A stretch of DNA of 64,000 nt from an uncultured Candidatus Saccharibacteria bacterium (GTDB taxonomy: Bacteria > Patescibacteriota > Minisyncoccia > Phycocordibacterales > UBA2100). Location of the stretch: contig CAZUVH010000003.1 of NCBI GenBank assembly GCA_964623775.1, forward strand, positions 79,400 to 143,399. Reading direction: 5' to 3'. The position numbers and the translations under genes are program-made. Each line of letters begins with the position of its first letter. The stretch's first letter is position 1. A model generated the notes under the pieces. The model did not search any database and was not told where the DNA came from. It saw nothing but the letters and a program-made list of their open reading frames with translations. Shown here piece by piece: positions 20,136 through 36,821 of this stretch.

Positions 20136-20672
20136 ATGACACAACTGCCCATAACCATAGGAATCGTCATTGCGCTCCTCGCCCTTTTTCTCATTTTCAT
20201 TACCGCACTCAAATACGCGATCCACAACAATTTCATGCGCACGCGCGTGATCATGACCGCCTTCTTTCTTTTTATTGTATGCACGCTTAGTTTCTCTTTC
20301 TGGCCATACGCCGCCGCCACGTTTCCATACAGTATTCCCGCATTTATCGTCGGTCTGACACTTGGGTATCTAATAGGCGTGCGGACTGCGCAGCAGAAGC
20401 TCCGTGCACATGGAGTCGAGCACTATATGGAGCACTTCGCGCACATTCACTCGCATGATTTTAAGAATTTGACGTGGTGGAGTGTAGTCAACTTCTACTC
20501 GGTCATGGGTGGACTCATTCTCATCAATTTCGTCGGCTTCAGCACCGTATTTCACAGCGGCTCAGAAACATGGGCGATCACGACGAGCGTCGTAGGGGCG
20601 CTTCTCTTGGGAAGTATTGTTCCGTATCTCGCGCACTTGTGGTCCGTCAAAGCAACGAACCGCGCCAATTGA
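20136..20672 (+). CDS. hypothetical membrane protein
   Basis: Hydrophobic helices. 3' end overlaps convergent cyoE by about 26 nt. Confidence 0.45.
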   Translation: MTQLPITIGIVIALLALFLIFITALKYAIHNNFMRTRVIMTAFFLFIVCTLSFSFWPYAAATFPYSIPAFIVGLTLGYLIGVRTAQQKLRAHGVEHYMEHFAHIHSHDFKNLTWWSVVNFYSVMGGLILINFVGFSTVFHSGSETWAITTSVVGALLLGSIVPYLAHLWSVKATNRAN

Positions 20673-21507
20673 TGATGAGGAGGATCGCGACTGAGAAGAT
20701 AACGAAGAGCGAGTAGAAGAACATCCTGCGAGCCCACTTTTTTTCATCCGAAGCCCAAAAGCCCCAAAGCGCATAGACGAGCCAGAGAAGCGACATGATC
20801 GTCATGACGATGCCGTAGAGATATCCGGTCAATCCTATTTGCGTCGGCACCGGCGAGAGTACCGCGAACGCGCATGCAAACATCACGATCTGCAGCTTCG
20901 TCTGATAGGTGCCTATTCTCGCCGGCATTATAGGAATTTTGGCAGCGCGATACTCATCCAGTCGGTAGATAGCGATTGCGAAAAAATGCACCATTTGCCA
21001 GAAAAAAAGTATCGCAAAAAGCGCGAGCGCCCCTTTGTCGAGTACGCCGGTCACTGCCGCGTATCCAGCGACTGGTGGCATCGCTCCGGCCACTGCGCCG
21101 ATATGGGTCGAGAATACCGTAACTCTCTTCGAGTAGCTGTACGCATAGACGTATGTAAAGAATCCAAGGAATGCGACAGCGATCGTGAGCACATTCGTGT
21201 GTGCATAGAGCGCGAGTACGCCAAGGATGAGGAGTGAGGATGCGAATTTGAGTGCGCTCGTCGGAGGGATCACTGCCTTAACAAGTTCACGATCTTTCGT
21301 ACGTGCCATAAGGCCGTCGATATCGCGGTCGATGTAATTGTTGTAGACACACGCCGAAGCGACGACGAGTGACATGCCGATCGTGACCGAGAGAAATGTG
21401 GCGATATCTATGGAGCCGCGAGACGCGACGAAAAATCCTGCGACCACCAGCAAGACATTGCCGTAAATCATGCCCGGCTTCGTGAGGTTGTAGTAGAGCT
21501 TGATCAT
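20647..21507 (-). CDS. cyoE: protoheme IX farnesyltransferase (heme O synthase)
   Basis: UbiA-family motif NNYIDRDIDGLMARTKDR. GGAGG RBS. Last gene of the cyo operon. Confidence 0.9.
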   Translation of the reverse strand: MIKLYYNLTKPGMIYGNVLLVVAGFFVASRGSIDIATFLSVTIGMSLVVASACVYNNYIDRDIDGLMARTKDRELVKAVIPPTSALKFASSLLILGVLALYAHTNVLTIAVAFLGFFTYVYAYSYSKRVTVFSTHIGAVAGAMPPVAGYAAVTGVLDKGALALFAILFFWQMVHFFAIAIYRLDEYRAAKIPIMPARIGTYQTKLQIVMFACAFAVLSPVPTQIGLTGYLYGIVMTIMSLLWLVYALWGFWASDEKKWARRMFFYSLFVIFSVAILLIINWRGSLL

Positions 21508-21508
21508 G

Positions 21509-21895
21509 CTAGGCCTCCGTCTGCGGCGTAACTATGCCGTCCTCAAAAGGTTCTGGCATATTACCATGCTGCAGATTTTGCATGATCCAGAGAGTTCCCG
21601 CGACAAGGATGGTGACGACAACGAGCGCAAAGGCGAGCGCCGTCTGATTCCAGTGCCCCTTTGATTTACCTCCATGGAGGAAAAAGAATATCTGCACGAA
21701 GAGCTGGACGAGCGCGCATACAAGAAGTGAGCTGTAGAGGACCGTCTGCGAGAAAAGCGTATGTGACCAGACGGTATGCGCGTACACGAGCGCAAATGCG
21801 GCAAGAGTCAGCAAGATCGAAAGCGCAAAACCGACCACATAGGACGAAACGGTTGCTTCTCGTGCGGTTTGTTCGTGTGGGTTATGAGTACTCAT
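21509..21895 (-). CDS. cyoD: cytochrome o ubiquinol oxidase subunit IV
   Basis: About 128 aa with 3 TM. The ATG overlaps the cyoC stop (ATGA). The longer ORF-track frame to 22120 is rejected because it overlaps cyoC. Confidence 0.8.
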   Translation of the reverse strand: MSTHNPHEQTAREATVSSYVVGFALSILLTLAAFALVYAHTVWSHTLFSQTVLYSSLLVCALVQLFVQIFFFLHGGKSKGHWNQTALAFALVVVTILVAGTLWIMQNLQHGNMPEPFEDGIVTPQTEA

Positions 21896-22461
21896 ATCGT
21901 GGGCCACAAAAAGACGAAGGTGAAGATGAATATCCAGATGATGTCGAGGAAGTGCCAAAAGAGGCTCATACACATGAGTTTTGTCAGTGTGCTTTCCGTA
22001 AATCCGCGCAGGTATACGTGGGCGGTGCACACGAGCATCCAGATCGAACCCAGGAATACATGGAAGCCGTGCGTGCCGACGAGCGCGAAGAACGACGAGA
22101 GAAATGCGCTCTCTCGCCAACTATGGCCCTCTGTTAGAAAGGTGTTGAATTCGTTGAGCTCCATTCCCAAAAATGCGAGGCCCAGTAAGAGCGTGATTGC
22201 GAGGCCAGCGATCGTAAGATTTCGCTTTTTCGCGTATGCCGCGAGCACGGCAAGTCCTACGGTGAAGCTCGAGGTGAGGAGAAGCAGTGTTTCGACAAAG
22301 ACATAGGGGAGCGAAAAAAGTTCTTGGGGTAAGGGAGAACCGAACGTAGCCGTATGCAAGACGGCATACGCGGCAAAAAGTCCTGCAAAGAGGACACAGT
22401 CGCTCATGAGGTAGATCCAAAAGCCGAATACGACGCGGTCAGTGTTTTGCTGATGGATCAT
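21892..22461 (-). CDS. cyoC: cytochrome o ubiquinol oxidase subunit III
   Basis: Heme-copper oxidase subunit III family by sequence pattern and operon position. Confidence 0.9.
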
Positions 22462-24401
22462 AGATATTTTTTCTCGAGAGCGGCAACCTCGTGCGCCGGT
22501 ATAGTGTATTCGACCTCCTCTTCAAATGAGCGGACGATCAGTGTGATCGGGATCAGGATAAAGCCGAGTATTGCGAGCCACCAGATGTGCCATACGATCC
22601 CAAAACCCAAGGCAAAACTGCATGCTCCGATAATGAGACCGATTGATGTATTTTTCGGCATATGGATATCCTCGAACACCTCCGGTGTTTTGAGGGAGCC
22701 TTCTTTAATCATGAGGTACGCATCTCGTCCATGCACGTGCGGGATCGTTGCGAAGTTGTACGTGGGGACAGGCGTGTGCGTAGACCATTCGAGCGTGCGG
22801 CCGTTCCACGGATCGTGTGTCATGTTGTGCTTACGTTGGATCACGCTCACTATTACCTGTATTACCTGCAGTAAGAGCGCAACCGCGATGACACATGCAC
22901 CGATTCCAGCGAGCACCAGGAGGGAGTACCACTCGCTCGATTGCTCAATATTGTAGAGGCGGCGCGTCATACCCATGATGCCGAGTGCGTAGAGCGGTAT
23001 AAACGCGAGTATGAAGCCGACGATCCAAGTCCAGAATGCCCATGTGCCGAGAGTCTCGTTGAGCGTGAATCCCATCACCTTGGGGAACCAGTACGTAAAT
23101 CCCGCAAAAAAGCCAAAGAGCACCCCGCCGATGATCACGTTGTGGAAGTGCGCCACGAGGAAGAGGCTGTTGTGCACCTGGAAGTCGATCCCCGGTATCG
23201 CGAGCAAGACGCCCGTCATCCCGCCGAGCGTGAAAGTAAATACGAATCCCATAAACCACAGCATCGGCGTTGTGAAGATGATTCGGCCGCGGAACATTGT
23301 GAAGAGCCAGTTGAAAATTTTGACACCGGTCGGGATCGCGATCGCCATCGTCGCGATACCAAAAAAGGCATTTACATTAGCGCCGGCGCCCATTGTAAAG
23401 AAGTGGTGCGCCCATACGATGTACGACAAAAAGGTGATGACGACCGTCGCCGCGACCATCGATGTGTAGCCAAACAATTTTTTTTGCGAGAAGACGGGCA
23501 CGATCTCCGAGAAAATGCCGAATGCGGGCAAAATGAGGATGTATACCTCGGGGTGTCCCCAGGCCCAAATGAGATTCACATACATCATCGCGTTGCCGCC
23601 CAGATCGGTGGTGAAAAAATGCATGCCAAGCGTGCGATCGAGCGAGAGCATGGCGAGCGTGACGGTGAGAATAGGGAAGGTAAAGAGGACGAGAATCATA
23701 CTCGCGAGCGACGTCCAGCAGAAAATCGGCATGCGCATCATCGTCATGCCGGGAGCGCGCATCTTGATGATCGTCACGATGAAATTTACGGCCGATATAA
23801 GCGAGCCCGCGCCCGCGATCTGTATCGCCCATATATAATAATCGACGCCGACACCTGGCGAGAATTCCAGTTCGGAAAGCGGCGGATACGCGAGCCACCC
23901 CGTGGCGGCAAATTCACCAGCAACGAGGGAGAAATTGAGCAACATTGCCCCGGCGACAGTAAGCCAGAGGCTCATCGCGTTGAGGAGGGGGAACGCCACA
24001 TCGCGCGCGCCGATTTGGAGCGGCACGATGAAATTGATAAAGCCAAACACGAACGGCATCGCGACGAAAAGGATCATAATGACGCCGTGCGCGGTGAATA
24101 TCTGTGCGAAGTGATCGGGCGAGAGGAATCCCACACTGTCGCCGACCGAGAGGGCTTGCTGGGCGCGCATCATAAGTGCGTCGATCGCGCCGCGCGTGAT
24201 CATGACGATCGCGAGTACGATATACATGACACCGATTTTCTTTGGATCAAGCGACGTCAGCCACTCCCGCCAGAGCCATGTCCATCGCCTGAAATATGTG
24301 AGGAGCAAGACGACGGCGAGCATGCCTAAGACGACGGAAAGTTGCCCGAATGTCTCGATGGGGCCGTGAATGAAATCCTCGATGGTAAGTATTCCCAGCA
24401 T
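22458..24401 (-). CDS. cyoB: cytochrome o ubiquinol oxidase subunit I
   Basis: Heme-copper oxidase subunit I signatures ([14 protein letters not shown] and the His ligands). 647 aa. Confidence 0.95.
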
Positions 24402-24403
24402 GG

Positions 24404-25291
24404 TTACATTTTATGCATGTCAGCCCCGGGCTGATCGGCCTCGGGCTGAAATTTCGCTATGATCGTATTAAACATTTCGCGGTCCACTGCTCCATAATAG
24501 ATGACCTTGGCGACCGATGGTGCCGCAAGCGCGGGATACGTATCTGTATTCAATAGATAGGGAGATTGTCGCACTTCCTCTGTCCAGCGATCGAAATCTT
24601 CCTGCGAGAGGGCGTGAGCCTTGAACCGCATTCGAGAAAAACCGTCGCCGCTGTAATTGGCCCCCGTGCCGTCGAAGATGCCGATTTCATCGGCGACGAG
24701 ATGGAGTTTCGTCTGCATGCCTGTCATAGCGTAGATTTGTCCGCCGAGCTGAGGGATCCAAAATGAATTCATCGGAGCATCGGCAGTGATCGAAAAGGCG
24801 AGTTGCCGGTCGACCGGAAACCTGGCCTCGTTTACCGAAGCGATGCCGTACTCGGGATAGATAAAAAGCCATTTCCAATCCAATGCCACAGCCTGAATTT
24901 TCACGGGCTGACCTTCCATCGAGAGGGGTTTATGCGGATCAAGCTCGTGCGTGCTGATCCATGTAAGCGCGCCGAGCACGAGTATGATCTCAAAGGGAAT
25001 TGCCCACCAGATGAGCTCGTCCACTTTTGCGTGCTCCCAATTGGGCATGTAGACGGCTTTGGTATTACTCGCTCGGTAGCGCCATGCGAAAAAAGCGGCG
25101 AGGATGAATACCGGTATTGCGACGACGAGCATGAGAAGTGTCGCGTATATAAGAAGGCTGCCTTCTTGTGCCGCAATCAGTCCTTTGGTCTCAAGGAGCG
25201 CAAGCGTCTTGCCGGAAAGCAGGTACCAAAAGATTCCCGCGATACCGAAGGAGACGAAAAGCGAAAGAGTTATTTTGTAATATGTCTTCAT
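24404..25291 (-). CDS. cyoA: cytochrome o ubiquinol oxidase subunit II
   Basis: Subunit II fold without a CuA site. Lipoprotein-like N-terminus. Start uncertain between 25291 and 25306. Confidence 0.85.
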
Positions 25292-25359
25292 GGTTGAAGT
25301 ACACAATCACTATAGCAGTATTAAAAAGAGAGAGCCGACCAAAATGGTCGGCTCTGTGT

Positions 25360-27707: not shown

Positions 27708-27754
27708 TATACTGTATCGCCCATTATGAAATAATGAAGATAGATTTGCAGTTA

Positions 27755-27771
27755 ATACCCCCAGGGGGTAT
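27755..27771. promoter_or_regulatory. CsoR-type operator: perfect palindrome ATACCCCCAGGGGGTAT overlapping a TATAAT -10
   Basis: Read directly. A GC-rich palindrome of the TACCC..GGGTA type is characteristic of CsoR-family operators. It sits 10 bp upstream of the csoR-like ATG. Confidence 0.65.
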
Positions 27772-27780
27772 AATGCAAAA

Positions 27781-28053
27781 ATGAAATCGGAAATTAAAAA
27801 GAAGGTGATACGCCGTCTGCAGATCGCTCAAGGCCAAATGAGGGGTCTCATGCAAATGGTAGAAGAAGAAAAATATTGCGTCGACATCATTACGCAATCA
27901 AGCGCAATAAAGGAGGCGCTTTCTGGTGTGGAGCACCTCATGCTTGAAAACCACCTCGCTACCCACGTGCTTCAGCAAATGAAAGGAGGAAATGAAAAAA
28001 AGGCCGTCGGCGAGATTCTCAAGGTGTATAAACTTTCACGAAGAAAAAAATAG
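27781..28053 (+). CDS. csoR: CsoR/RcnR-family metal-sensing transcriptional repressor
   Basis: 90 aa, all α-helical. RLxIAQGQMRGLMQMVEEEKYCVDIITQ motif with Cys, then H..H. Heads the copper-gene cluster. Confidence 0.75.
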   Translation: MKSEIKKKVIRRLQIAQGQMRGLMQMVEEEKYCVDIITQSSAIKEALSGVEHLMLENHLATHVLQQMKGGNEKKAVGEILKVYKLSRRKK

Positions 28054-28054
28054 T

Positions 28055-28807
28055 ATGAATTGGAAAATTGCAACTTCCGTGTTGGGGGTCCTCGCGGTGA
28101 TCGGGACTTTTGGCTATGCGAACATAAGAACTCAGGATACGAACGTGTCCGCCAAATTCGCGGATCCGGGCGAGGAACAGCTCACCGTATCGCCGCAAGA
28201 GGCGCGGAGTTCTGTTTTGATTGATCGTGCGGTCTTCGCGACAGGTGGATTTGTTGTCGTGCGCGGGAGCGATGGCAAACGGCTCGGCCAGATCATCGAA
28301 ATAAGTACGTACCTTGAGGCGGGCATATATGAAAACATCACTATCAGCCTCGGCGAGTTTTACACCTATAAACAAGGTGACCAGTTGATCGCGATGATCT
28401 ATCAGGACGATGGTGACACTCTGTTTTCCGAACTTGACCAGCTCTCAAGCAGCGATACGGCCGTTTTCGTGAAAACTGGAGAAACGGTGCCCGCTGCCAC
28501 ATTCGATGAACAGGTCGCCTCACATAGTGGTACAGGAATGGAAACGGTCCGTTATACGAAGGGCGGATTTCAACCGACAAGACTCATCGTGCCGGTGGGC
28601 ACAATGGTGGAGTTCATAAATCAAAGCGACAAGCAAATGTGGGTCGCGTCCAGCAAACACCCTTCACATGAGCTTCTGCCGACGTTTGATCAATTTAAGG
28701 GAGTTGGCGCGGGCGAAAACTACATGTATACGTTCGACAAAAAAGGTACATGGTCGTATCACGACCACATCAATCCTGCACTCGAAGGAGCAATTATCGT
28801 CGAGTGA
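28055..28807 (+). CDS. secreted cupredoxin-like domain protein
   Basis: Signal anchor. C-terminal about 100 aa has a cupredoxin-like pattern (VGTMVEF.NQSD..H....H......GxxYxYTFxxxGTWxYHDHxNP) without Cys. Confidence 0.55.
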   Translation: MNWKIATSVLGVLAVIGTFGYANIRTQDTNVSAKFADPGEEQLTVSPQEARSSVLIDRAVFATGGFVVVRGSDGKRLGQIIEISTYLEAGIYENITISLGEFYTYKQGDQLIAMIYQDDGDTLFSELDQLSSSDTAVFVKTGETVPAATFDEQVASHSGTGMETVRYTKGGFQPTRLIVPVGTMVEFINQSDKQMWVASSKHPSHELLPTFDQFKGVGAGENYMYTFDKKGTWSYHDHINPALEGAIIVE

Positions 28808-28830
28808 TTACCAAGTATTTAGAAAAATCT

Positions 28831-29046
28831 ATGCATAATGCAGAAAAAAGAATCAGTCTCTTTTCAAGGCCCGTGTGGATCATTATCTCTGCAATCGGTA
28901 TTGTCGGACTCGTGTTCTTGCTCACCGAACACACATCACATGTCTTGATCGCGCTGCCGTATTTGGTCCTTCTCGCGTGCCCTCTGCTGCACATCTTTAT
29001 GCACAAAGGGCATAGTGGACATAGTCACGACAAATCAAAATCTTAA
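28831..29046 (+). CDS. DUF2933-family small membrane protein (His-rich C-terminus)
   Basis: LLACPLLHIFMHKGHSGHSH matches the DUF2933 pattern common in metal-resistance loci. Confidence 0.6.
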   Translation: MHNAEKRISLFSRPVWIIISAIGIVGLVFLLTEHTSHVLIALPYLVLLACPLLHIFMHKGHSGHSHDKSKS

Positions 29047-29278
29047 CGTATGAACGTACGTATCACACGTAAACACGATGCGACCAGGTTTCTATTAGGG
29101 GCAACTGTCTCCATCTGCTCCTTTTTTGGTGGGGTTTTCGTTGATGGGCATGCGGAAGCCGGTCATGTTCAGACTCCTTTTATAATGCATTTGTCCGGAG
29201 AGCACGATGAGTTATTGGATAATCGGCCGACTCAGCGAAAAAAGGAATTGCCAGCGGTTGCCTCAAATATGTAATGCT

Positions 29279-31561
29279 ATGAACAACAGTCATCACAATC
29301 ATCATCATAACCATCGCGGTATGCACGACAGATGCACCAGCGGGTGCTGTGACGCTCACAGGCGTCATCGCGACCACAAAACAAATCAAGGCATGGGCGG
29401 TGATACCGTTTACACCTGTCCGATGCATCCGGAGGTTATCGGGCAGAAAGAGGGCAAGTGCCCTGGCTGTGGTATGGATCTGATACCGGTCTTCGCAAAT
29501 ACTGTCGCGAGCGAACATACAGGACATGATTTTGAAAAAATGAGCCATATGGATCACGAAGCTGCGATGACAAATCCACAGATGGCAAAGAAGATGGAGG
29601 CCGATATGCGCAGAAGATTTTGGATCTCTTTTGTCCTCTCAATCCCGATATTTCTCTATTCTCCCGTGGGGATCAACTTCTTCGGTCTCAATCTCCCGGC
29701 GCCTATCCCTGTGAGCTGGATTCTTTTCATCCTCACGACCCCAATCGTATTTTGGACAGGTTCCATCTTCATTACGGGCACATACTACTCACTTAAAGCT
29801 CGCACACTCAACATGGCAGTCTTGATCGCCACCGGTGTGCTTGCGGCGTATTTATTCAGCGTGTTACTTACACTGATACAGCCGGAAAGCGAAACATTCT
29901 ATGAGGCTGCCGCGCTCCTCGTCACCTTCGTACTCTTCGGTCACTGGATGGAGATGAAGTCGCGTCGTGGCACGTCGGACGCGCTGCGAGCGCTTTTTGA
30001 TCTTGTCCCCCCGAAGGCTATTGTAATTCGGAATGGCAAAGAAATGAGTATTCCGAGCGCGGAAGTAATTCAGGGCGACACCGTTGTGCTTCGTCCCGGC
30101 GACAAGGTACCTGTCGACGGCGAAGTCATTGAGGGCGAGACATCGATCGACGAATCGCTCGTGACGGGCGAATCCATCCCTATTGTTAAAAAGTCTGGTG
30201 ACAAAATAACGGGCGGTTCAGTCAATCTGACAGGCTCGGTAAAATTTAAAGCGATGCAGGTTGGCTCGGAAACAGTACTCGCACAGATCATCAAGATGGT
30301 GGAGACCGCGCAAAACTCCAAAGCGCCAGGCCAACGCATCGCCGATCTATGGGCAGGGCGACTCGTCCTCGTTGCGCTTGGTTCAGGCACAGCGGCGTTC
30401 ATCGGCTGGTACTTCTTCGGTGATGCCGGTCTTTTGACTGCACTCACCTTTGCCGTTTCGACCGTTGTCATTGCCTGTCCGGATGCCTTGGGACTTGCCA
30501 CGCCGACCGCCGTCGCCGTTGGTACCGGCCTTGGTGCGAAGCACAACATTCTCATCAAGGATGCAGCGACACTCGAGAACACTTCAAGGCTCACAGCCAT
30601 CGTGCTCGATAAGACGGGTACCTTGACCGAGGGGAAGCCGAAAGTCACCGAAGTTGTTTCCACCAATTCCTACACTAAAGAGGATGTACTTGCGTACGCT
30701 GCCGCCGTAGAGCGAAGTTCAAATCACCCCATCAGTCTTGCCATTATCGAAGAGGCACAAAAGCGAAATGTGTCGATTGAGAAGAAAGTGGAAAAGTTTG
30801 AATCAATTGGCGGCCATGGTGTGCGCGCCGTTGCGGACGGTAAAGTAATTATTGCCGGAACCGAACGTCTGATGAATCAAAATAATATTGACCTTGCGCC
30901 ACTCAAAAAAGAGATCAATCGGCTACTCGACACGGGAAACACCATAAGCATCGTGGCTATAGAGGGCAAGATCGCGGGCGCTATCGGCGTAGCCGACACT
31001 GTGCGCGAGAGTACGAAGAAAACGATCCAGAAGCTCAAGGAAATGGGACTCGAGGTCGCCATGATTACCGGTGATCACGAGCAGGTAGCCAAAGCCATAT
31101 CCGCCGATCTTGGTATCGACCGCTATTTCGCCCAGGTGCTTCCCGAAGAGAAAGCAAAGTATGTCAAAAAACTTCAAGACGAAGGCAAGTTTGTAGCAAT
31201 GGTCGGCGATGGCATCAACGATGCGCCCGCACTCGCGCAATCGGACATCGGCATCGCTATAGGCGCGGGCACCGATGTCGCTATTGAAACCGGCAATATC
31301 GTCCTGATGAAATCAGACCCATATGACATCGTAGCGGCGCTACGACTCTCAAAAGCAACGGTCACGAAAATGAAGCAAAATCTCTTTTGGGCTGCAATTT
31401 ACAACGTGCTTGCGATTCCCGTCGCGGCTGGTGTCTTTTACACCTCGCTCGGCTGGTCCTTGCGACCCGAGATCGCTGCACTCCTCATGTCCGCGTCATC
31501 AATCATCGTCGCCACGAACGCCGTATTATTAAAACGAGTTGAGCCAAGGCTAAAAGAATAA
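29279..31561 (+). CDS. copA: copper-translocating P1B-type ATPase with His-rich N-terminus and CPxCGM metal-binding motif; TM6 motif is CPD rather than CPC
   Basis: DKTGTLT, TGES-like and GDGINDAP motifs. N-terminal HHNHHHNH plus YTCPMHPE..CPGCGM. TM6 reads IACPDALGLATP. Confidence 0.9.
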   Translation: MNNSHHNHHHNHRGMHDRCTSGCCDAHRRHRDHKTNQGMGGDTVYTCPMHPEVIGQKEGKCPGCGMDLIPVFANTVASEHTGHDFEKMSHMDHEAAMTNPQMAKKMEADMRRRFWISFVLSIPIFLYSPVGINFFGLNLPAPIPVSWILFILTTPIVFWTGSIFITGTYYSLKARTLNMAVLIATGVLAAYLFSVLLTLIQPESETFYEAAALLVTFVLFGHWMEMKSRRGTSDALRALFDLVPPKAIVIRNGKEMSIPSAEVIQGDTVVLRPGDKVPVDGEVIEGETSIDESLVTGESIPIVKKSGDKITGGSVNLTGSVKFKAMQVGSETVLAQIIKMVETAQNSKAPGQRIADLWAGRLVLVALGSGTAAFIGWYFFGDAGLLTALTFAVSTVVIACPDALGLATPTAVAVGTGLGAKHNILIKDAATLENTSRLTAIVLDKTGTLTEGKPKVTEVVSTNSYTKEDVLAYAAAVERSSNHPISLAIIEEAQKRNVSIEKKVEKFESIGGHGVRAVADGKVIIAGTERLMNQNNIDLAPLKKEINRLLDTGNTISIVAIEGKIAGAIGVADTVRESTKKTIQKLKEMGLEVAMITGDHEQVAKAISADLGIDRYFAQVLPEEKAKYVKKLQDEGKFVAMVGDGINDAPALAQSDIGIAIGAGTDVAIETGNIVLMKSDPYDIVAALRLSKATVTKMKQNLFWAAIYNVLAIPVAAGVFYTSLGWSLRPEIAALLMSASSIIVATNAVLLKRVEPRLKE

Positions 31562-31564
31562 ACT

Positions 31565-32212
31565 ATGTGTTTTTCAGCAGCAGCAAGTTTCGCAGCAGGA
31601 GGAGCGCTCAGCGTGGCGGGAGGCTTGACAATTGCACAGGTGAAAAAGAAGACCGAGCTACCATTTGCCAGTATTCCGCTCTTGTTCGGCATCCAGCAGG
31701 TCATTGAAGGAGCAGTGTGGGTTTCTTTTGGTTCCCCAATAGTGAATACCGTGGCCACATACGCATACTCGATGTTTTCTCATGTGCTGTGGCCGGTCTT
31801 AGTCCCAGTCTCTGTTTTTCTGATGGAGACAGAACCAATTCGGAAAAAGATTCTCTCCTTGTTCTCATTTCTTGGTCTGGCAGTTGGTGGTTACCTGCTT
31901 TATTTCATCATTGCAGATCCTGTTACTGCTCATATCGTCAACAACAGTATTGCCTACCATTCTCCGCATTTGTACGCGTATCTCATCATGGCACTTTATC
32001 TCGTGGCGACATGCGGCAGTTGTTTTGTATCAAGTCACAGAATCATAAATCTGTTCGGTGTCGTTCTTCTCGTATCTTTCGCCGTCGCAGCGTGGTTCTA
32101 TACTGAAACATTTTTCTCGGTTTGGTGCTTCTTTGCTGCTATTCTCAGCATCATTGTGTACTGGTACTTCAAAAGAAAACCTGCTGCAGAAAAGCTGGTC
32201 GAAGCAGGCTGA
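31565..32212 (+). CDS. hypothetical membrane protein
   Basis: 6 or so TM helices. Directly follows copA. Confidence 0.45.
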   Translation: MCFSAAASFAAGGALSVAGGLTIAQVKKKTELPFASIPLLFGIQQVIEGAVWVSFGSPIVNTVATYAYSMFSHVLWPVLVPVSVFLMETEPIRKKILSLFSFLGLAVGGYLLYFIIADPVTAHIVNNSIAYHSPHLYAYLIMALYLVATCGSCFVSSHRIINLFGVVLLVSFAVAAWFYTETFFSVWCFFAAILSIIVYWYFKRKPAAEKLVEAG

Positions 32213-32244
32213 TTATTAACTTAGGTGTATTAACTCAAAAAACC

Positions 32245-32496
32245 ATGAACACATTTCGCGCAATTAAAATCGGATTGGCGTGGATAACGAGTACGTATGT
32301 CTTGTGCTACATCATTCTGGGCTTAATACCGGCTTCGCGACCATCGCTCTTGCCGTACATTCTGCATCTCAACGTCGGGCCGGTTGAGAATATCTTCACG
32401 CTTGGGAACTTTGTCGTCGGTCTCGTTCTCTGGAATGTTATCGTAGGAGCTGGTATTTGGTGGGTTGGGTTTCTTGGTAAATATATTAAAAACTAA
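32245..32496 (+). CDS. small hypothetical membrane protein
   Basis: Internal ATG of the ORF-track frame. 2 TM. Confidence 0.35.
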   Translation: MNTFRAIKIGLAWITSTYVLCYIILGLIPASRPSLLPYILHLNVGPVENIFTLGNFVVGLVLWNVIVGAGIWWVGFLGKYIKN

Positions 32497-32506
32497 TCAC
32501 AGAAAT

Positions 32507-32725
32507 ATGAAATTCTCAAAAGTAATGCACGTTAGTAGTGTTGTTGCCGGATTCGCCGGAGTCATCTCGTTCCTTATTGCAGTCTTCGGGAACGCTGAGA
32601 GCGTATTCGGTATTACGAAGGCCGACACTCTTGCATGTGCAGCCATTCTTATACTCATCGCCATTTGGACGCAGATAGCGACCATCCATCACATGATGCT
32701 TGAGAAAAGAAGCGAGCTTATGTAG
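32507..32725 (+). CDS. small hypothetical membrane protein
   Basis: Internal ATG. 2 TM. Confidence 0.35.
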   Translation: MKFSKVMHVSSVVAGFAGVISFLIAVFGNAESVFGITKADTLACAAILILIAIWTQIATIHHMMLEKRSELM

Positions 32726-32763
32726 CTTTTTTTCGCTACAGCACGTTTGTGCACAGATAAACC

Positions 32764-32794
32764 AAAGCCCGCCGCGCGAGACGCGACGGGCTTT
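32764..32794. terminator. hairpin AAAGCCCG-(15 nt)-CGGGCTTT between convergent genes
   Basis: 8-bp GC-rich stem. T-rich flank on the minus-strand side. Confidence 0.5.
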
Positions 32795-32813
32795 GCAGGC
32801 GAGGTCTCACGCT

Positions 32814-32942
32814 TTATTTCTTTGAAATGTGCTGCCAGAGCCAGACACCGAGTAGGCAGAGGTCGATGAAGATGACCACCGCAAAGAGTAAGTGCCAAAT
32901 GCTCCCGCCGCCCATCATTCCATATCCATATTGTCCCATCAT
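32814..32942 (-). CDS. candidate 42-aa membrane micro-protein (MMGQYGYGMMGGGSIWHLLFAVVIFIDLCLLGVWLWQHISKK)
   Basis: Translated by hand. Below the ORF-track size cutoff. Followed on its strand by the 32764-32794 hairpin plus TTTGGTTTAT. Confidence 0.3.
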   Translation of the reverse strand: MMGQYGYGMMGGGSIWHLLFAVVIFIDLCLLGVWLWQHISKK

Positions 32943-33076
32943 AGAAATAGTGTGTTTGATTTGTAATTGACCGCACTTCCAGTATACGACTCTTTTGGGG
33001 TTAAAGAAGCGTCGGATGTTTTTCTGTGTAGTTTTTTGATTCTTGCGTTTGAGGAAGAGAGGAGTAGAGTGAGTGT

Positions 33077-33445
33077 ATGTTTAGTTCTAGAGTGCTCACC
33101 TCATTTCTTCTAGCAATCATGGTGATCATGGCGGTTTTCGGTGTGCCCTTTGCTCTCAGCAATATGCATCATGATGTCGGGTGTCCGTATATGCCAGGCA
33201 CGGATGCGATGTGTCCCGTAGGTTTTCTAGCGCATCTCGGTCATTGGCAGACAGCATTTCTCGGAGTGATCATTAATACCTTTGCGTTCTACATTCTCGC
33301 ACTTGCATTTTTCGGTATTACAGCGTTTGCGCGCCCGCCCGATAGACACTACATACGACTTAGGTCATACGATCGTAGAACGCCACGATCTACTTTGCTC
33401 CAGATACTTTTTGCACGAGGACTCATTCACTCCAAGGCTTTTTAA
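33077..33445 (+). CDS. hypothetical membrane protein with Cys/His/Met cluster (HHDVGCPYMPG..MCPVGFLAHLGHW)
   Basis: ORF and hydrophobicity. Potential metal ligands. Copper-island context. Confidence 0.4.
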   Translation: MFSSRVLTSFLLAIMVIMAVFGVPFALSNMHHDVGCPYMPGTDAMCPVGFLAHLGHWQTAFLGVIINTFAFYILALAFFGITAFARPPDRHYIRLRSYDRRTPRSTLLQILFARGLIHSKAF

Positions 33446-33492: not shown

Positions 33493-34233
33493 TTGTTTCT
33501 CTTAACTATGGAATCAACATCTCAGCAGAAAAATAACTTCTTAACAGTACCTGTCGCGATCGTGATTGCGGGGGTGATCATTGCGATTAGCCTCTTTGTA
33601 GGTATTCGTAGCCGGACGCCAGTAGCTGCAAACCCGCAAGTACCGCAGGCTCCCGCTGGCAATCTCGAAGCGATGGCCCCGATCACTAAAGGAGATCACA
33701 TCCGAGGCAACGCGAATGCACCCATCACGATCGTCGAGTATTCGGATTTCGAGTGCCCTTTTTGTAAGCGCTTCCACGACACGATGAAGCAGGTCATGAG
33801 CGAATTTGGCGCAAGTGACAAGGTCGCATGGGTATACCGCCAGTTTCCGCTCGACGCGCTTCACTCGAAGGCGCGCAAGGAGGCCGTCGCTTCGGAGTGC
33901 GCGGCAGAGCTCGGCGGCAACGACGCATTCTGGAAATTCACCGACCGCTTCTTCGAGCTGACACCATCGAACAATCAAACCGACATTGATACGGTGCTTC
34001 CGCAAATCGCACGTGAAATCGGACTCAATGAGCAGAAATTCTCATCGTGTCTCGGCAGCGGAAAATATGATGCGCATGTGGAAGCCGACGTACAAAATGC
34101 TGGCGCAACGGGCGGCAACGGCACGCCGTGGAGCATTATTGTCGGGAAGAGCGGTAAGAAATATCCAATCAACGGTGCTCAGCCATACGATGCGATAAAA
34201 CAGCTTATCGAAGTTGCTCTGAAGGATAGATAG
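33493..34233 (+). CDS. DsbA-family thiol:disulfide oxidoreductase (membrane-anchored)
   Basis: CPFC active site in a thioredoxin-fold context (EYSDFECPFCKRFH). Confidence 0.75.
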   Translation: MFLLTMESTSQQKNNFLTVPVAIVIAGVIIAISLFVGIRSRTPVAANPQVPQAPAGNLEAMAPITKGDHIRGNANAPITIVEYSDFECPFCKRFHDTMKQVMSEFGASDKVAWVYRQFPLDALHSKARKEAVASECAAELGGNDAFWKFTDRFFELTPSNNQTDIDTVLPQIAREIGLNEQKFSSCLGSGKYDAHVEADVQNAGATGGNGTPWSIIVGKSGKKYPINGAQPYDAIKQLIEVALKDR

Positions 34234-34867: not shown

Positions 34868-35290
34868 ATGAAAAAAATCAAAACATCACACATTCTTATG
34901 GGATTCGCAACTATAATATTTGCTGGTCTTGTCCTCAATACATACGTCCAGTCAGGACGTACCGACATTATCGCGAAAAATGGGATGCATTGGCATCCGC
35001 AACTGTCAATGTATGTAAAAGGGGAAAAGATCGAAATTCCACAAAACATCGGCATCGGCCCAGTACATAATCCTATTCATACACATGACGACCTCCCGGC
35101 ATTGCATCTCGAATTTGGGGGTGTTGTACAGCAGAAGGACGTCATGCTCGGAAAGTTCTTCGACGCATGGGGCAAAGACATGCGCTCGTTTGGTTCCAGT
35201 ATGCGTATGACGGTCAATGGCAAGGAAAGTACTGAGTACGAAAATTACATGATGCGCGATGGTGATAAAATCGAGCTACGGTATGACTAA
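34868..35290 (+). CDS. hypothetical exported protein
   Basis: N-terminal anchor. HTHDD motif. No family recognised. Confidence 0.4.
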   Translation: MKKIKTSHILMGFATIIFAGLVLNTYVQSGRTDIIAKNGMHWHPQLSMYVKGEKIEIPQNIGIGPVHNPIHTHDDLPALHLEFGGVVQQKDVMLGKFFDAWGKDMRSFGSSMRMTVNGKESTEYENYMMRDGDKIELRYD

Positions 35291-36821
35291 GAAACAAATT
35301 GCCATCGTCGGCGGGGTGCTCGTGCTCGCGACTATCGCCGCGGCGGTACTGCTCGGATCGACCTCGGCGCAGCGAGCGCCGCAGGTAAAGGCGAATGAAA
35401 TCGTCGAACTAAAAAACGGCGACACGTACATGCTCACTGCGAGCTATATAACGAAAGAGATCGGCGGACGAGAGCAAAAGATGCTTGCATACAACGGCAT
35501 GATTCCTGGCCCAACGATCCGTGTGCAGCAGGGCGCGGAAATCACGGTCGACTTCAAGAACGAGACCGATATGCCCGCACTCCTCCACTCTCATGGTGTG
35601 CGCATGGACTATCGTTTCGACGGTGCGCAGACCTCGCAAGAGGAAATCGAGCCAGGCCAGTCGTTCAGTTACACGCTGAAATTCCCCGATGCCGGTGTGT
35701 ACTGGTATCATCCGCACGCCAATGAAGTGTACGGACAGCCGCTCGGGCTCTATGGCGCGTACGTCGTCATGCCGACCGATGAGGATTACTTCCCACCTGT
35801 AAACCGCGAAGAAGTCGTTTTTCTCTCCGATCTCCTGATGGATGGCGGAAGGATCGCGATAGACAAGAGGGGGGACGACTTCTCTCTCATGGGCCACTTC
35901 GGCAATCTCATGCTCGTGAATGGGCAAGAGAATTATGTGCTTCGTGCAAAAAAAGGTGAGGTTGTACGTCTGTATGTCATCAATGCGGCAAATGTGCGAC
36001 CGTTCAACTTTGCGATCAAGGGAATGAAGATGAAATTGATCGGCGGCGACAGTGGCGCGTACGAGAAAGCGACATGGCAAGAGAGCGTACTCCTCTCTCC
36101 GTCGGAGCGTGCAATCGTCGATGTCATGTTTACGATACCAACGACGATAATCAACGACACTCCGGCAGGTCTCACCGCGCTCGGGTCTGTCGTAATCGAT
36201 CCTGGCCAGGCGGGGACTTCGTACGCCTCACAGTTTGGTCAGCTGCAGGACAGTCGTGTCGTGAAAGACAGCATTGATACGTTTCGCCCGTATTTCAATA
36301 GGGCGCCCGACAGACGCATCGCGCTTACGCTCGATATGGGAATGGGCGGCGGACCTGGCACGCACATGATGCCAAATGGTACCGCGATGAGTAATACCGG
36401 AATGGCTATGGGTGTGCCTACGGGTGGCATTGAGTGGGAGGATGATATGGCGATGATGAATTCGATGTCGAACACCCAGATGGTGCAATGGCACATTGTC
36501 GATCAGGACACCGGCAAGAAAGACATGGATATAGATTGGACTTTCAGCAAAGGCGCGCCCGTTAAAATCCGCATCTTTAATGATCCACAATCGATGCATC
36601 CGATGCAGCACCCGATCCACTTCCACGGGCAGCGCTTCTTGGTGGTCGCGCGGGACGGAGTAGCGCAGACGAATCTCGGATGGAAGGACACGGTGCTCGT
36701 AAAAGCGGGGGAGACTGTCGATATTGTGCTCGATACGACCAATCCAGGAATCTGGATGGCGCACTGCCATATCGCCGAGCACCTCGCGGCGGGCATGATG
36801 TTTGCGTTCAAGGTGCAGTAA
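35283..36821 (+). CDS. multicopper oxidase (CueO/laccase-like) with Met-rich insert
   Basis: Four Cu-ligand motifs: HSHGV, WYHPHA, HPIHFHG, HCHIAEHLAAGM. Met-rich segment MGMGGGPGTHMMPNGTAMSNTGMAMG. Tat/Sec-type N-terminus. Confidence 0.9.
   Translation: MTKKQIAIVGGVLVLATIAAAVLLGSTSAQRAPQVKANEIVELKNGDTYMLTASYITKEIGGREQKMLAYNGMIPGPTIRVQQGAEITVDFKNETDMPALLHSHGVRMDYRFDGAQTSQEEIEPGQSFSYTLKFPDAGVYWYHPHANEVYGQPLGLYGAYVVMPTDEDYFPPVNREEVVFLSDLLMDGGRIAIDKRGDDFSLMGHFGNLMLVNGQENYVLRAKKGEVVRLYVINAANVRPFNFAIKGMKMKLIGGDSGAYEKATWQESVLLSPSERAIVDVMFTIPTTIINDTPAGLTALGSVVIDPGQAGTSYASQFGQLQDSRVVKDSIDTFRPYFNRAPDRRIALTLDMGMGGGPGTHMMPNGTAMSNTGMAMGVPTGGIEWEDDMAMMNSMSNTQMVQWHIVDQDTGKKDMDIDWTFSKGAPVKIRIFNDPQSMHPMQHPIHFHGQRFLVVARDGVAQTNLGWKDTVLVKAGETVDIVLDTTNPGIWMAHCHIAEHLAAGMMFAFKVQ

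Follow-up and report, generated by a model that had tools for sequence, protein, structure and literature searches.

The DNA analysed here is a stretch of 64,000 nucleotides (nt) from an uncultured Candidatus Saccharibacteria bacterium (contig CAZUVH010000003.1), referred to below as the window; nucleotide positions are those of the window unless another locus is named. It encodes a P1B-type metal ATPase in which the ion-site motif of transmembrane (TM) helix M4 reads Cys-Pro-Asp (CPD), with Asp in the place of the second Cys of the CPC motif. Comparison with related sequences indicates that CPD is the fixed signature of a large, biochemically uncharacterised branch of CopB-related copper ATPases, not a one-off mutation. 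The pump itself is probably a functional, ATP-driven and CsoR-controlled Cu(I) exporter, a representative of the CPD subtype within the CopB lineage.

The open reading frame (ORF) of the pump spans 29207-31561 on the plus strand. It offers start codons at 29207 (GGAG 6 nt upstream), at the ATG 29279 chosen in the original prediction, and at 29321, which corresponds to the start of P0001, a 100% identical protein in the NCBI data; the exact start is uncertain. A look-up of the window protein's own exact sequence gave no record. Residue numbers used here are counted from the ATG at 29279, which yields a protein of 760 amino acids. The P-type hallmarks listed in the original prediction, the His-rich N-terminus and the CPMHPE...CPGCGM domain were all present in the translation. 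Ten His residues fall within residues 1-40, followed by CPMHPE (residues 47-52, in the context YTCPMHPE) and CPGCGM (61-66), which together make up the Pfam domain HMBD (PF19335, E 4e-12). The catalytic motifs are TGES (296-299), DKTGT (444-448), (SN)HP (483-484) and GDGINDAP (643-650). A hydropathy scan and the secondary structure of an AlphaFold2 model (pLDDT 78.8, pTM 0.72) concur in eight TM helices (MA, MB, M1-M6); in the model, helix M4 is broken at residues 399-401, which fits a P-type ion site. These features, namely DKTGT, TGES, GDGxNDxP, the HP of the N-domain and eight helices with M4 unwound at xPx, are those of the P1B class. In the model the HMBD forms short strands (pLDDT about 70-78) and the His-rich tail is disordered. 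No second P-type ATPase was found in the window by a six-frame motif scan.

Besides HMBD, Pfam recognised E1-E2_ATPase and Hydrolase, and the NCBIfam model for copper-translocating ATPases (TIGR01511) scored 562 bits against a cutoff of 397, while the ZntA equivalog models stayed far below their cutoffs. NCBIfam has no model specific to the CopB or CPD subgroup, and the models above cutoff were the generic copper and heavy-metal ones. Among sequences of solved structures in the PDB, the best matches were the copper pumps of Archaeoglobus fulgidus (AfCopA) and Legionella pneumophila (LpCopA), at about E 1e-166; these searches returned no full-length CopB, just fragments of the CopB nucleotide-binding domain. 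Foldseek likewise placed solved copper P1B structures first, AfCopA in E1 with a template-modelling score of 0.84 (target-normalised).

The M4 signature of the pump reads IACPDALGLATP and includes C400-P401-D402. In HMMER alignments D402 stood opposite C384 of LpCopA and the second Cys of the AfCopA motif, which bears out the earlier placing of CPD in the transmembrane metal site of a P1B ATPase. The codon of D402 is GAT (30482-30484), and it would take two base changes to make a Cys codon of it. The pump retains C400, Y708, N709, M737 and S741, five of the six residues of the classical Cu(I) site; in place of the remaining one, the second Cys of CPC, this pump and all members of its clade have Asp.

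How far the motif extends was seen when homologs were collected. The signature IACPDALGLATP was identical in all of the 120 best database homologs (71-100% identity), those with names belonging to Kaiserbacteria, Paceibacterota, Wildermuthbacteria and other Patescibacteria. When one genome per GTDB species was scanned, relatives were confirmed in at least 572 genomes; the best 80 loci were examined, and all 80 encoded CPD, 78 of them also keeping a GHWMEM-type motif. Nearly all of these loci came from Patescibacteria of many classes, the others being one Woesearchaeota and one Acidimicrobiia bin. Among representatives of 50%-identity clusters, the nearest (46-60% identity) had CPD, and the lower ones comprised about 130 CPC, four CPH and one SPD protein. 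The representative P0123 stands for an actinobacterial family (Rhodococcus, Cellulomonas, Arthrobacter, Blastococcus, Geodermatophilus), in which (I/V)TCPDALGLATP was found in 119 of 119 members and MSGSS (or MSGST) in 118, behind an HMA-like N-terminal domain without CxxC. The best plasmid matches were CPD pumps of Methylocystis, Xanthobacter autotrophicus Py2, Pseudomonas, Polaromonas, Rhodococcus, Mycolicibacterium and Thermus brockianus. In all, CPD was invariant in more than 300 homologs across phyla, and it seems that small-genome Patescibacteria normally rely on a CPD pump for copper.

The original prediction had called for such a search, and had regarded CPD as an unusual substitution in a CopA. 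That description has to be given up: a large clade has CPD throughout, and this clade already has a name. In 2017 a bioinformatic study reported a 'novel CPD motif' in three rhizobial ATPases, one of them from Xanthobacter, placed them with CopB and named them P1B-3a (PMC5552934). In our full-text literature search this was the only paper relevant to CPD pumps, and no functional or biochemical study was found; the other matches for 'CPD' concerned critical-point drying, phosphodegrons and pyrimidine dimers. The original prediction was also to fall if CPD proved to be the norm of a well-characterised subfamily; CPD is indeed the norm of a subfamily, but of one that is not well characterised.

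The position of the CPD pumps relative to CopA and CopB was studied in an alignment of 56 CPD/SPD, 21 CPH and 124 CPC pumps. The CPH set included the plasmid-borne copB of Staphylococcus equorum, which adjoins a YdhK/CopL-like gene and a multicopper oxidase (MCO) gene, a Thermococcus pump, and CopB-like proteins of Bacteroidota with the classical His-rich N-terminus, GYNx4P and MSxST; LpCopA and a Rhodococcus CopA were in the CPC set. A neighbour-joining tree of 618 columns, from which the third CPx column had been removed, joined the CPD and CPH pumps in one clade apart from all 124 CPC pumps in 100 of 100 bootstraps (99 of 100 in an earlier tree). The CPH clade was likewise supported by 100 of 100, and the CPD lineages were paraphyletic around it, as if intermediate between CopA and CopB. 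Without recourse to the tree, the positions that best separated CPD from CPC pumps (H222, W223, M226, G231, L362, A366, G370, A663, P681, M698 and A712) proved to be common to the CPH pumps; H222, W223 and M226 occurred in the CPD and CPH clades and not in CPC pumps. The comparison with CopB made in the original prediction was therefore apt, given the joint clade and these common residues.

To read the alignment we used LpCopA as a guide, where we take M148, E205 and D337 to be entry residues, C382, C384, Y688, N689, M717 and S721 to form the site, and E189, M100 and M711 to line the exit. Conserved in all three groups were M179, E225, D356, C400, Y708, N709, M737 and S740/741. The third CPx residue covaried with two positions on the exit side. 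At the column of E189 there was Glu (E209) in 54 of 56 CPD pumps, Trp in 21 of 21 CPH pumps, which have a Glu one residue later, and Glu or Asp in 122 of 124 CPC pumps. The column of M711 held Glu (E731) in 53 of 56 CPD and Ala in 19 of 21 CPH pumps, and Met, Ile or Glu in CPC pumps. The combinations are thus D/E/E for CPD, H/W/A for CPH and C/E(D)/M-I-E for CPC. After CPx, M4 continues with ATPTA in CPD pumps as in CopA, CopB having AIPLV, and M6 has MSxSS where CopB has MSxST. By these residues the CPD pumps are a mosaic: the cytoplasmic entry side (GHWxEM, M698) is CopB-like, E209 and ATPTA are CopA-like, and E731 is found in them alone.

Copper as the cargo is suggested by the CsoR box in the promoter, the CsoR-family gene, the MCO and, in relatives, the neighbouring CopZ and CopA. 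The operon is preceded by the only 10/12 promoter match on the plus strand between 27300 and 37000. A perfect 8+8 palindrome, ATACCCCC-A-GGGGGTAT (ATACCCCCAGGGGGTAT), lies at 27755-27771 over its -10 element, TATAAT; it is unique in the window, where 0.06 occurrences are expected at up to two mismatches, and it equals the CsoR box ATACCCCnnnGGGGTAT of Corynebacterium glutamicum (PMC5057107). The csoR-like gene is the first of the operon; the box, ATACCCCcagGGGGTAT, covers its promoter and lies nine bases before its ATG at 27781. The box recurred in 8 related loci, either before csoR-like genes or before the pump; among them it was found upstream of csoR-like genes in six and directly upstream of the pump in another. 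The repressor gene has the GC-rich pseudo-palindromic operator at its own promoter that is typical of CsoR. Its fingerprint is x-C-H-H and not C-H-C. When it was aligned with 23 neighbours of CPD pumps, most had C-H-H and four had C-H-C. In a subgroup of the CsoR-like neighbours (in loci L002-L068), helix 1 carries one more conserved His (...HRAKIIRGQ...).

Downstream of the box the genes follow in the order csoR-like, DUF7282-cupredoxin, DUF2933, pump, DUF6629, small membrane proteins, DsbA-like and MCO, co-directional and tightly spaced, the MCO lying 3.7 kb downstream of the pump (Table 1). We annotate this region with confidence as a CsoR-controlled copper-homeostasis island. The DUF6629 gene, homologs of which were found in 6 of 80 related loci, is probably co-transcribed with the pump. 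The 232-nt gap between DUF2933 and the pump (29047-29278) holds an ORF of 74 amino acids (29050-29274), which was treated as non-coding spacer because it had no Pfam match and no homolog in the 80 loci. The DUF7282-cupredoxin protein, which may be an extracellular copper acceptor, gave weak PDB matches to cupredoxin domains, where the Cys, His and Met ligands align with Asp, Asn and Leu; with the canonical ligands not conserved, its identity as a type-1 copper protein was rejected. There are His residues nearby in that domain (KHPSHE, YHDH). The small predicted membrane proteins downstream of the pump occupy 32122-33445. Just upstream of the copper island in this Patescibacteria genome, on the minus strand, there is a complete operon for a cyo-type heme-copper quinol oxidase (20647-25306).

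Related loci were surveyed for genes within 3.5 kb of the pump (81 loci, the window and 80 relatives). A CsoR-family gene was present in 22 of the 81, and in 23 of the 80 when the distance was extended to 5 kb. DUF2933 adjoined the pump in 18 loci, an MCO was found in 11 and a canonical CPC/CxxC CopA in 10; DUF302, DsbD_TM and redoxin were further recurrent neighbours. A complete Kaiserbacteria genome has the same copper island, MCO included. In Actinobacteria the CPD pump adjoins CopZ-CopA in three genera, Rhodococcus, Cellulomonas and Miltoncostaea. The Rhodococcus locus also has a two-component system, an MCO and DUF305, and that of Cellulomonas has DsbA, DUF305 and redoxin. In Miltoncostaea marina the CPD pump lies 27 nt downstream of the end of a canonical C-H-C csoR gene, which is divergent from copZ-copA. 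The CPD pump of Thermus brockianus comes after an MCO. Several plasmids carry the Rhodococcus island, with transposase genes on its flanks. Beside the Patescibacteria CPD pumps there are also families without a Pfam match (neighbour families 0, 2, 3, 6 and 7), each in 14-23 of the 81 loci; examples are a protein of about 310 amino acids with a C-terminal Cys-rich motif, a secreted protein of about 155 amino acids, and a membrane domain sometimes fused to HMBD.

Table 1. Features of the window discussed in the text, with related loci in the last line
Feature	Position	Strand	Remarks
CPD-type P1B copper ATPase	29279..31561	+	760 aa; alternative starts 29207, 29321
HMBD zinc-ribbon metal-binding domain	29408..29491	+	aa 44-71, preceded by His-rich stretch aa 1-40; Pfam PF19335
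E209 in M2	29903..29905	+	column of LpCopA exit residue E189
GHWMEM, cytoplasmic end of M2	29939..29956	+	flanks entry Glu E225 (= LpCopA E205)
C400-P401-D402, M4 ion-site motif (TGT CCG GAT)	30476..30484	+	translation; alignment; model
DKTGT phosphorylation motif (D444)	30608..30622	+	translation motif scan
GDGINDAP hinge motif	31205..31228	+	translation motif scan
YNVLAIP (YNx4P) in M5	31400..31420	+	aa 708-714; Y708, N709 invariant across CPD, CPH and CPC clades
E731	31469..31471	+	column of LpCopA exit-side residue M711
MSASS (MxxSS) in M6	31487..31501	+	aa 737-741
Promoter-like site TTTGCA-18-TATAAT	27745..27774	+	holds predicted CsoR-type operator palindrome
CsoR/RcnR-family metal-sensing repressor	27781..28053	+	fingerprint x-C-H-H; Pfam PF02583, E 6e-22
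Membrane-anchored DUF7282 + C-terminal cupredoxin-like protein	28055..28807	+	PF23951 3.6e-16; PF13473 6.4e-5 (under cutoff)
DUF2933 small membrane protein	28828..29046	+	His-rich tail; Pfam PF11666, E 5e-21
DUF6629 membrane protein	31565..32212	+	PF20334, E 3.9e-37; starts 4 nt past pump stop
DUF5676-like 2TM protein	32122-32496		
ORF recurring in 8-11 related loci	32465-32725		
Small predicted membrane protein	33077-33445		Cys/His/Met-rich stretch MHHDVGCPYMPGTDAMCPVGFLAHLGHW
DsbA-like protein	33493-34233		
Three-domain multicopper oxidase	35259..36821	+	Pfam Cu-oxidase, Cu-oxidase_2, Cu-oxidase_3
COX2-like subunit II with COX_ARM	24404-25306	minus	
COX1	22458-24401	minus	E 2e-149
COX3	21892-22461	minus	
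COX4_pro	21509-22120	minus	
UbiA-family heme O synthase	20647-21507	minus	
CPD pump and CopZ-CopA side by side (Rhodococcus, Cellulomonas, Miltoncostaea)	L082 3977-9106; L090 6001-11770; L091 2202-8472		

For a CsoR-controlled Cu(I) exporter the following course of events can be proposed. Rising cytoplasmic Cu(I) would bind the CsoR-family repressor, which would come off the ATACCCCnnnGGGGTAT operator and let the operon be transcribed. The His-rich/HMBD N-terminus might capture the metal or regulate the pump. Cu(I) would enter past M179, E225 and D356, beside the clade-specific H222, M226 and M698, would be held chiefly by the sulfur ligands C400 and M737, and in the E2P state would leave along an acidic path formed by D402, E209 and E731. 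D402 would not be a ligand of the thiolate type; it would bind weakly or transiently, or relay protons or charge, and for this reason one Cu(I) per cycle is predicted, as has been proposed for CopB. Binding dominated by sulfur would fit the work of Purohit and co-workers from 2018, in which a CopB was reportedly activated by Cu(I) and not by Cu(II), with the Cu(I) coordinated by sulfur.

Several points weigh against this scheme. A carboxylate is a poor ligand for Cu(I), and an exit side with D402, E209 and E731, all acidic and conserved, could accommodate a harder or divalent ion too. The fingerprint of the local repressor, x-C-H-H, is not the Cu(I)-specific C-H-C, and in Thermus thermophilus a CsoR with H-C-H-H is reported to control a cop operon and to respond to several metals (PMC5057107). 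The tree was made by neighbour joining only, and relatives of the query are over-represented among its CPC and CPH pumps. Substrate and stoichiometry are read from homology and gene neighbourhood only, since no assay of a CPD pump was found in the literature. Finally, CPD pumps are frequently paired with a canonical CopA, and this pairing suggests that the CPD pump has a role of its own, one that plain 'Cu(I) efflux' would leave unexplained.

One such role would be the supply of extracytoplasmic cuproenzymes: the pump would move Cu(I) not for detoxification but for metallation, at a low rate and with high affinity, in the manner of CopA2, CcoI or CtpA. This proposal concerns the physiology and not necessarily the transported ion. 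It draws on the quinol oxidase operon and the MCO that lie on either side of the pump, on the recurrence of MCOs among the neighbours of its relatives, and on the Actinobacteria, where the CPD pump and a canonical CopZ-CopA efflux pair occur together and may divide the work between them. We nevertheless think it unlikely, as a CsoR-type repressor, which lets its genes be induced when metal is in excess, is typical of detoxification systems, relatives are found on plasmid-borne resistance islands, and most Patescibacteria loci have no second copper pump nearby, a CPC pump lying within 3.5 kb in 10 loci only. Moreover, known CopA2 pumps carry CPC.

The pairing with CopA could also mean that the CPD pumps form a mechanistically distinct P1B subclass, in which the acidic trio D402/E209/E731 alters the cargo or the mode of transport. 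The difference may consist in another ion or oxidation state, another stoichiometry, obligatory proton counter-transport, or hand-over to an extracellular acceptor such as the co-encoded cupredoxin-like protein. We regard this as an improbable reading; if it were true, it would explain why a CPD pump is kept beside a canonical CopA, and the clade would be an evolutionary intermediate between CopA and CopB.

A somewhat fainter chance is left to another cargo along the lines of the original prediction, a harder or divalent ion, for example Cu(II), Zn(II), Cd(II) or Pb(II), with D402, E209 and E731 replacing thiolate and thioether ligands. Every member of the clade indeed has Asp for a Cys ligand, together with two more conserved Glu on the exit side, one of which takes a position often occupied by Met in CPC pumps; the x-C-H-H fingerprint resembles those of the unselective T. 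thermophilus CsoR and of RcnR, and relatives bear the database label 'Cu2+-exporting ATPase', although by automatic naming only. On the other side, copper in the cytoplasm is Cu(I). The pump keeps the rest of the Cu(I) signature (Cys, YN, MxxSS) unchanged and shows neither the P1B-2 nor the P1B-4 signature. The gene context speaks against the idea as well: the MCO and, among the neighbours of relatives, CopZ, CopA and a C-H-C CsoR belong to Cu(I) systems, and together with the CsoR box and the CsoR-family repressor they point to sensing of cytoplasmic Cu(I) and its export. The His-rich N-terminus, which the original prediction had taken as a pointer to harder ligands or Cu(II)-type chemistry, is not diagnostic, since LpCopA, a CPC pump for Cu(I), has the same His-rich and HMBD N-terminus. 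The premise of 'Cu(II)-type chemistry as in CopB' is itself outdated according to the review PMC7558416 (citing Purohit 2018), in which the Cu(II) assignment is withdrawn and CopB/P1B-3, the sister group of the CPD pumps, is reclassified as Cu(I)-transporting and merged with the Cu(I) pumps.

There is next to no chance that the pump is an ordinary CopA (P1B-1 proper) in which Asp stands for Cys through a sequencing error or through a private mutation that might inactivate it: its best solved-structure matches are CopA proteins and it has YNx4P and MxxSS, but artefact and private mutation, the former already dismissed in the original prediction, are excluded because all close homologs carry IACPDALGLATP, and are refuted further by the two-base codon gap, the identical P0001 and the intact catalytic motifs, while CopA proper is ruled out by the split from the CPC pumps in the tree and by the clade-specific residues.

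The subgroups of P1B ATPases are defined by ligand motifs in M4, M5 and M6, and these motifs are used in annotation to predict metal specificity. The CPD group is large and spans phyla, with the species-level genomes counted above, a separate actinobacterial family and plasmid copies. It amounts to a natural experiment on the second metal-binding residue of CPx, which is Cys, His or Asp in otherwise similar scaffolds, and the comparison bears on the number of Cu(I) ions carried and on ion release. The existence of the variant will not surprise a specialist, but a clade of this size, with its D/E/E covariation and its repeated occurrence beside CopA, is still a sensible choice for biochemical study.

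P1B-2 pumps combine CPC with Lys in M5 and Asp in M6, and P1B-4 pumps have SPC and HEGxT. With YN in M5 and MSASS in M6 the window pump belongs neither with ZntA nor with CoaT and CzcP. Of the P1B-1 characters it has YN(x)4P and M(x)2SS, as defined in PMC5552934; its CPD differs from CPC, it does not fall into a clade with CPC pumps, and in place of an N-terminal HMA domain with CxxC, for which there was no HMA match, it has HMBD and a His-rich tail. With P1B-3 it shares a His-rich N-terminus and the joint clade with CopB, but it lacks CPH, which was found in all 21 CopB-type sequences of the tree and in 119 of 119 relatives of P0238, and it has MSASS and AIYN instead of MSxST and GYN(x)4P; actinobacterial CPD pumps carry GYN, and the Thermus CPD pump carries MSTST. 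CPD and the grouping with CopB agree with P1B-3a, whereas few N-terminal His residues, MSGSS and a length about 80 residues greater than that of CopB are absent from the window pump and fit the proteobacterial/actinobacterial branch only. Since the P1B-1 and P1B-3 characters do not all fit and CPD occurs together with grouping with CopB, the window pump is a new member, on the Patescibacteria branch, of a known but uncharacterised subtype (CPD, named in 2017).

Of the known systems, CopB (the historical P1B-3 with CPH, from Enterococcus hirae, Staphylococcus and A. fulgidus) is sister to the CPD pumps or nested among them. Common to both are GHWxEM, M698, A712, P129, L362/A366/G370, the His-rich N-terminus and a non-thiol residue for the second Cys. 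The window pump differs from CopB in having Asp for His at the third CPx position, E209 in the CopA register where CopB has a Trp-Glu shifted by one, E731 for Ala, ATPTA for AIPLV and MSASS for MSxST. The P1B-3a pumps (group VIc, rhizobial; X. autotrophicus Py2, Nitrobacter hamburgensis and Bradyrhizobium sp.; PMC5552934) are like the window pump in CPD and in their placement with CopB, and Xaut_4847 of Xanthobacter, among the best plasmid matches at 47% identity, also reads IACPDALGLATP. In contrast to the His-rich tail, HMBD and MSASS of the window pump, they have an HMA-like N-terminus without CxxC, few His residues and MSGSS, and the Patescibacteria branch is separate from the described members.

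The Cu(I) pumps LpCopA (Lpg1024; PDB 3RFU, 4BBJ) and AfCopA (7R0G), both P1B-1, have about 43% identity to the window pump and the same fold. LpCopA shares the His-rich and HMBD N-terminal architecture, aligns with the window pump from residue 6, and has M148, E189, E205, D337, C382, Y688, N689, M717 and S721 in common with it. The window pump differs by Asp for C384, Pro for M100, Glu for M711, the added entry-side residues H222 and M226, and its position outside the CPC clade. The CsoR-regulated cop operons of Mycobacterium tuberculosis, C. glutamicum, Bacillus subtilis and T. thermophilus (the last with its H-C-H-H CsoR) resemble the window operon in having a CsoR-family gene first and in the exact ATACCCCnnnGGGGTAT operator over the -10 element; compared with them, the window operon has x-C-H-H instead of C-H-C, no CopZ, and the additional DUF7282-cupredoxin, DUF2933 and DUF6629 genes.

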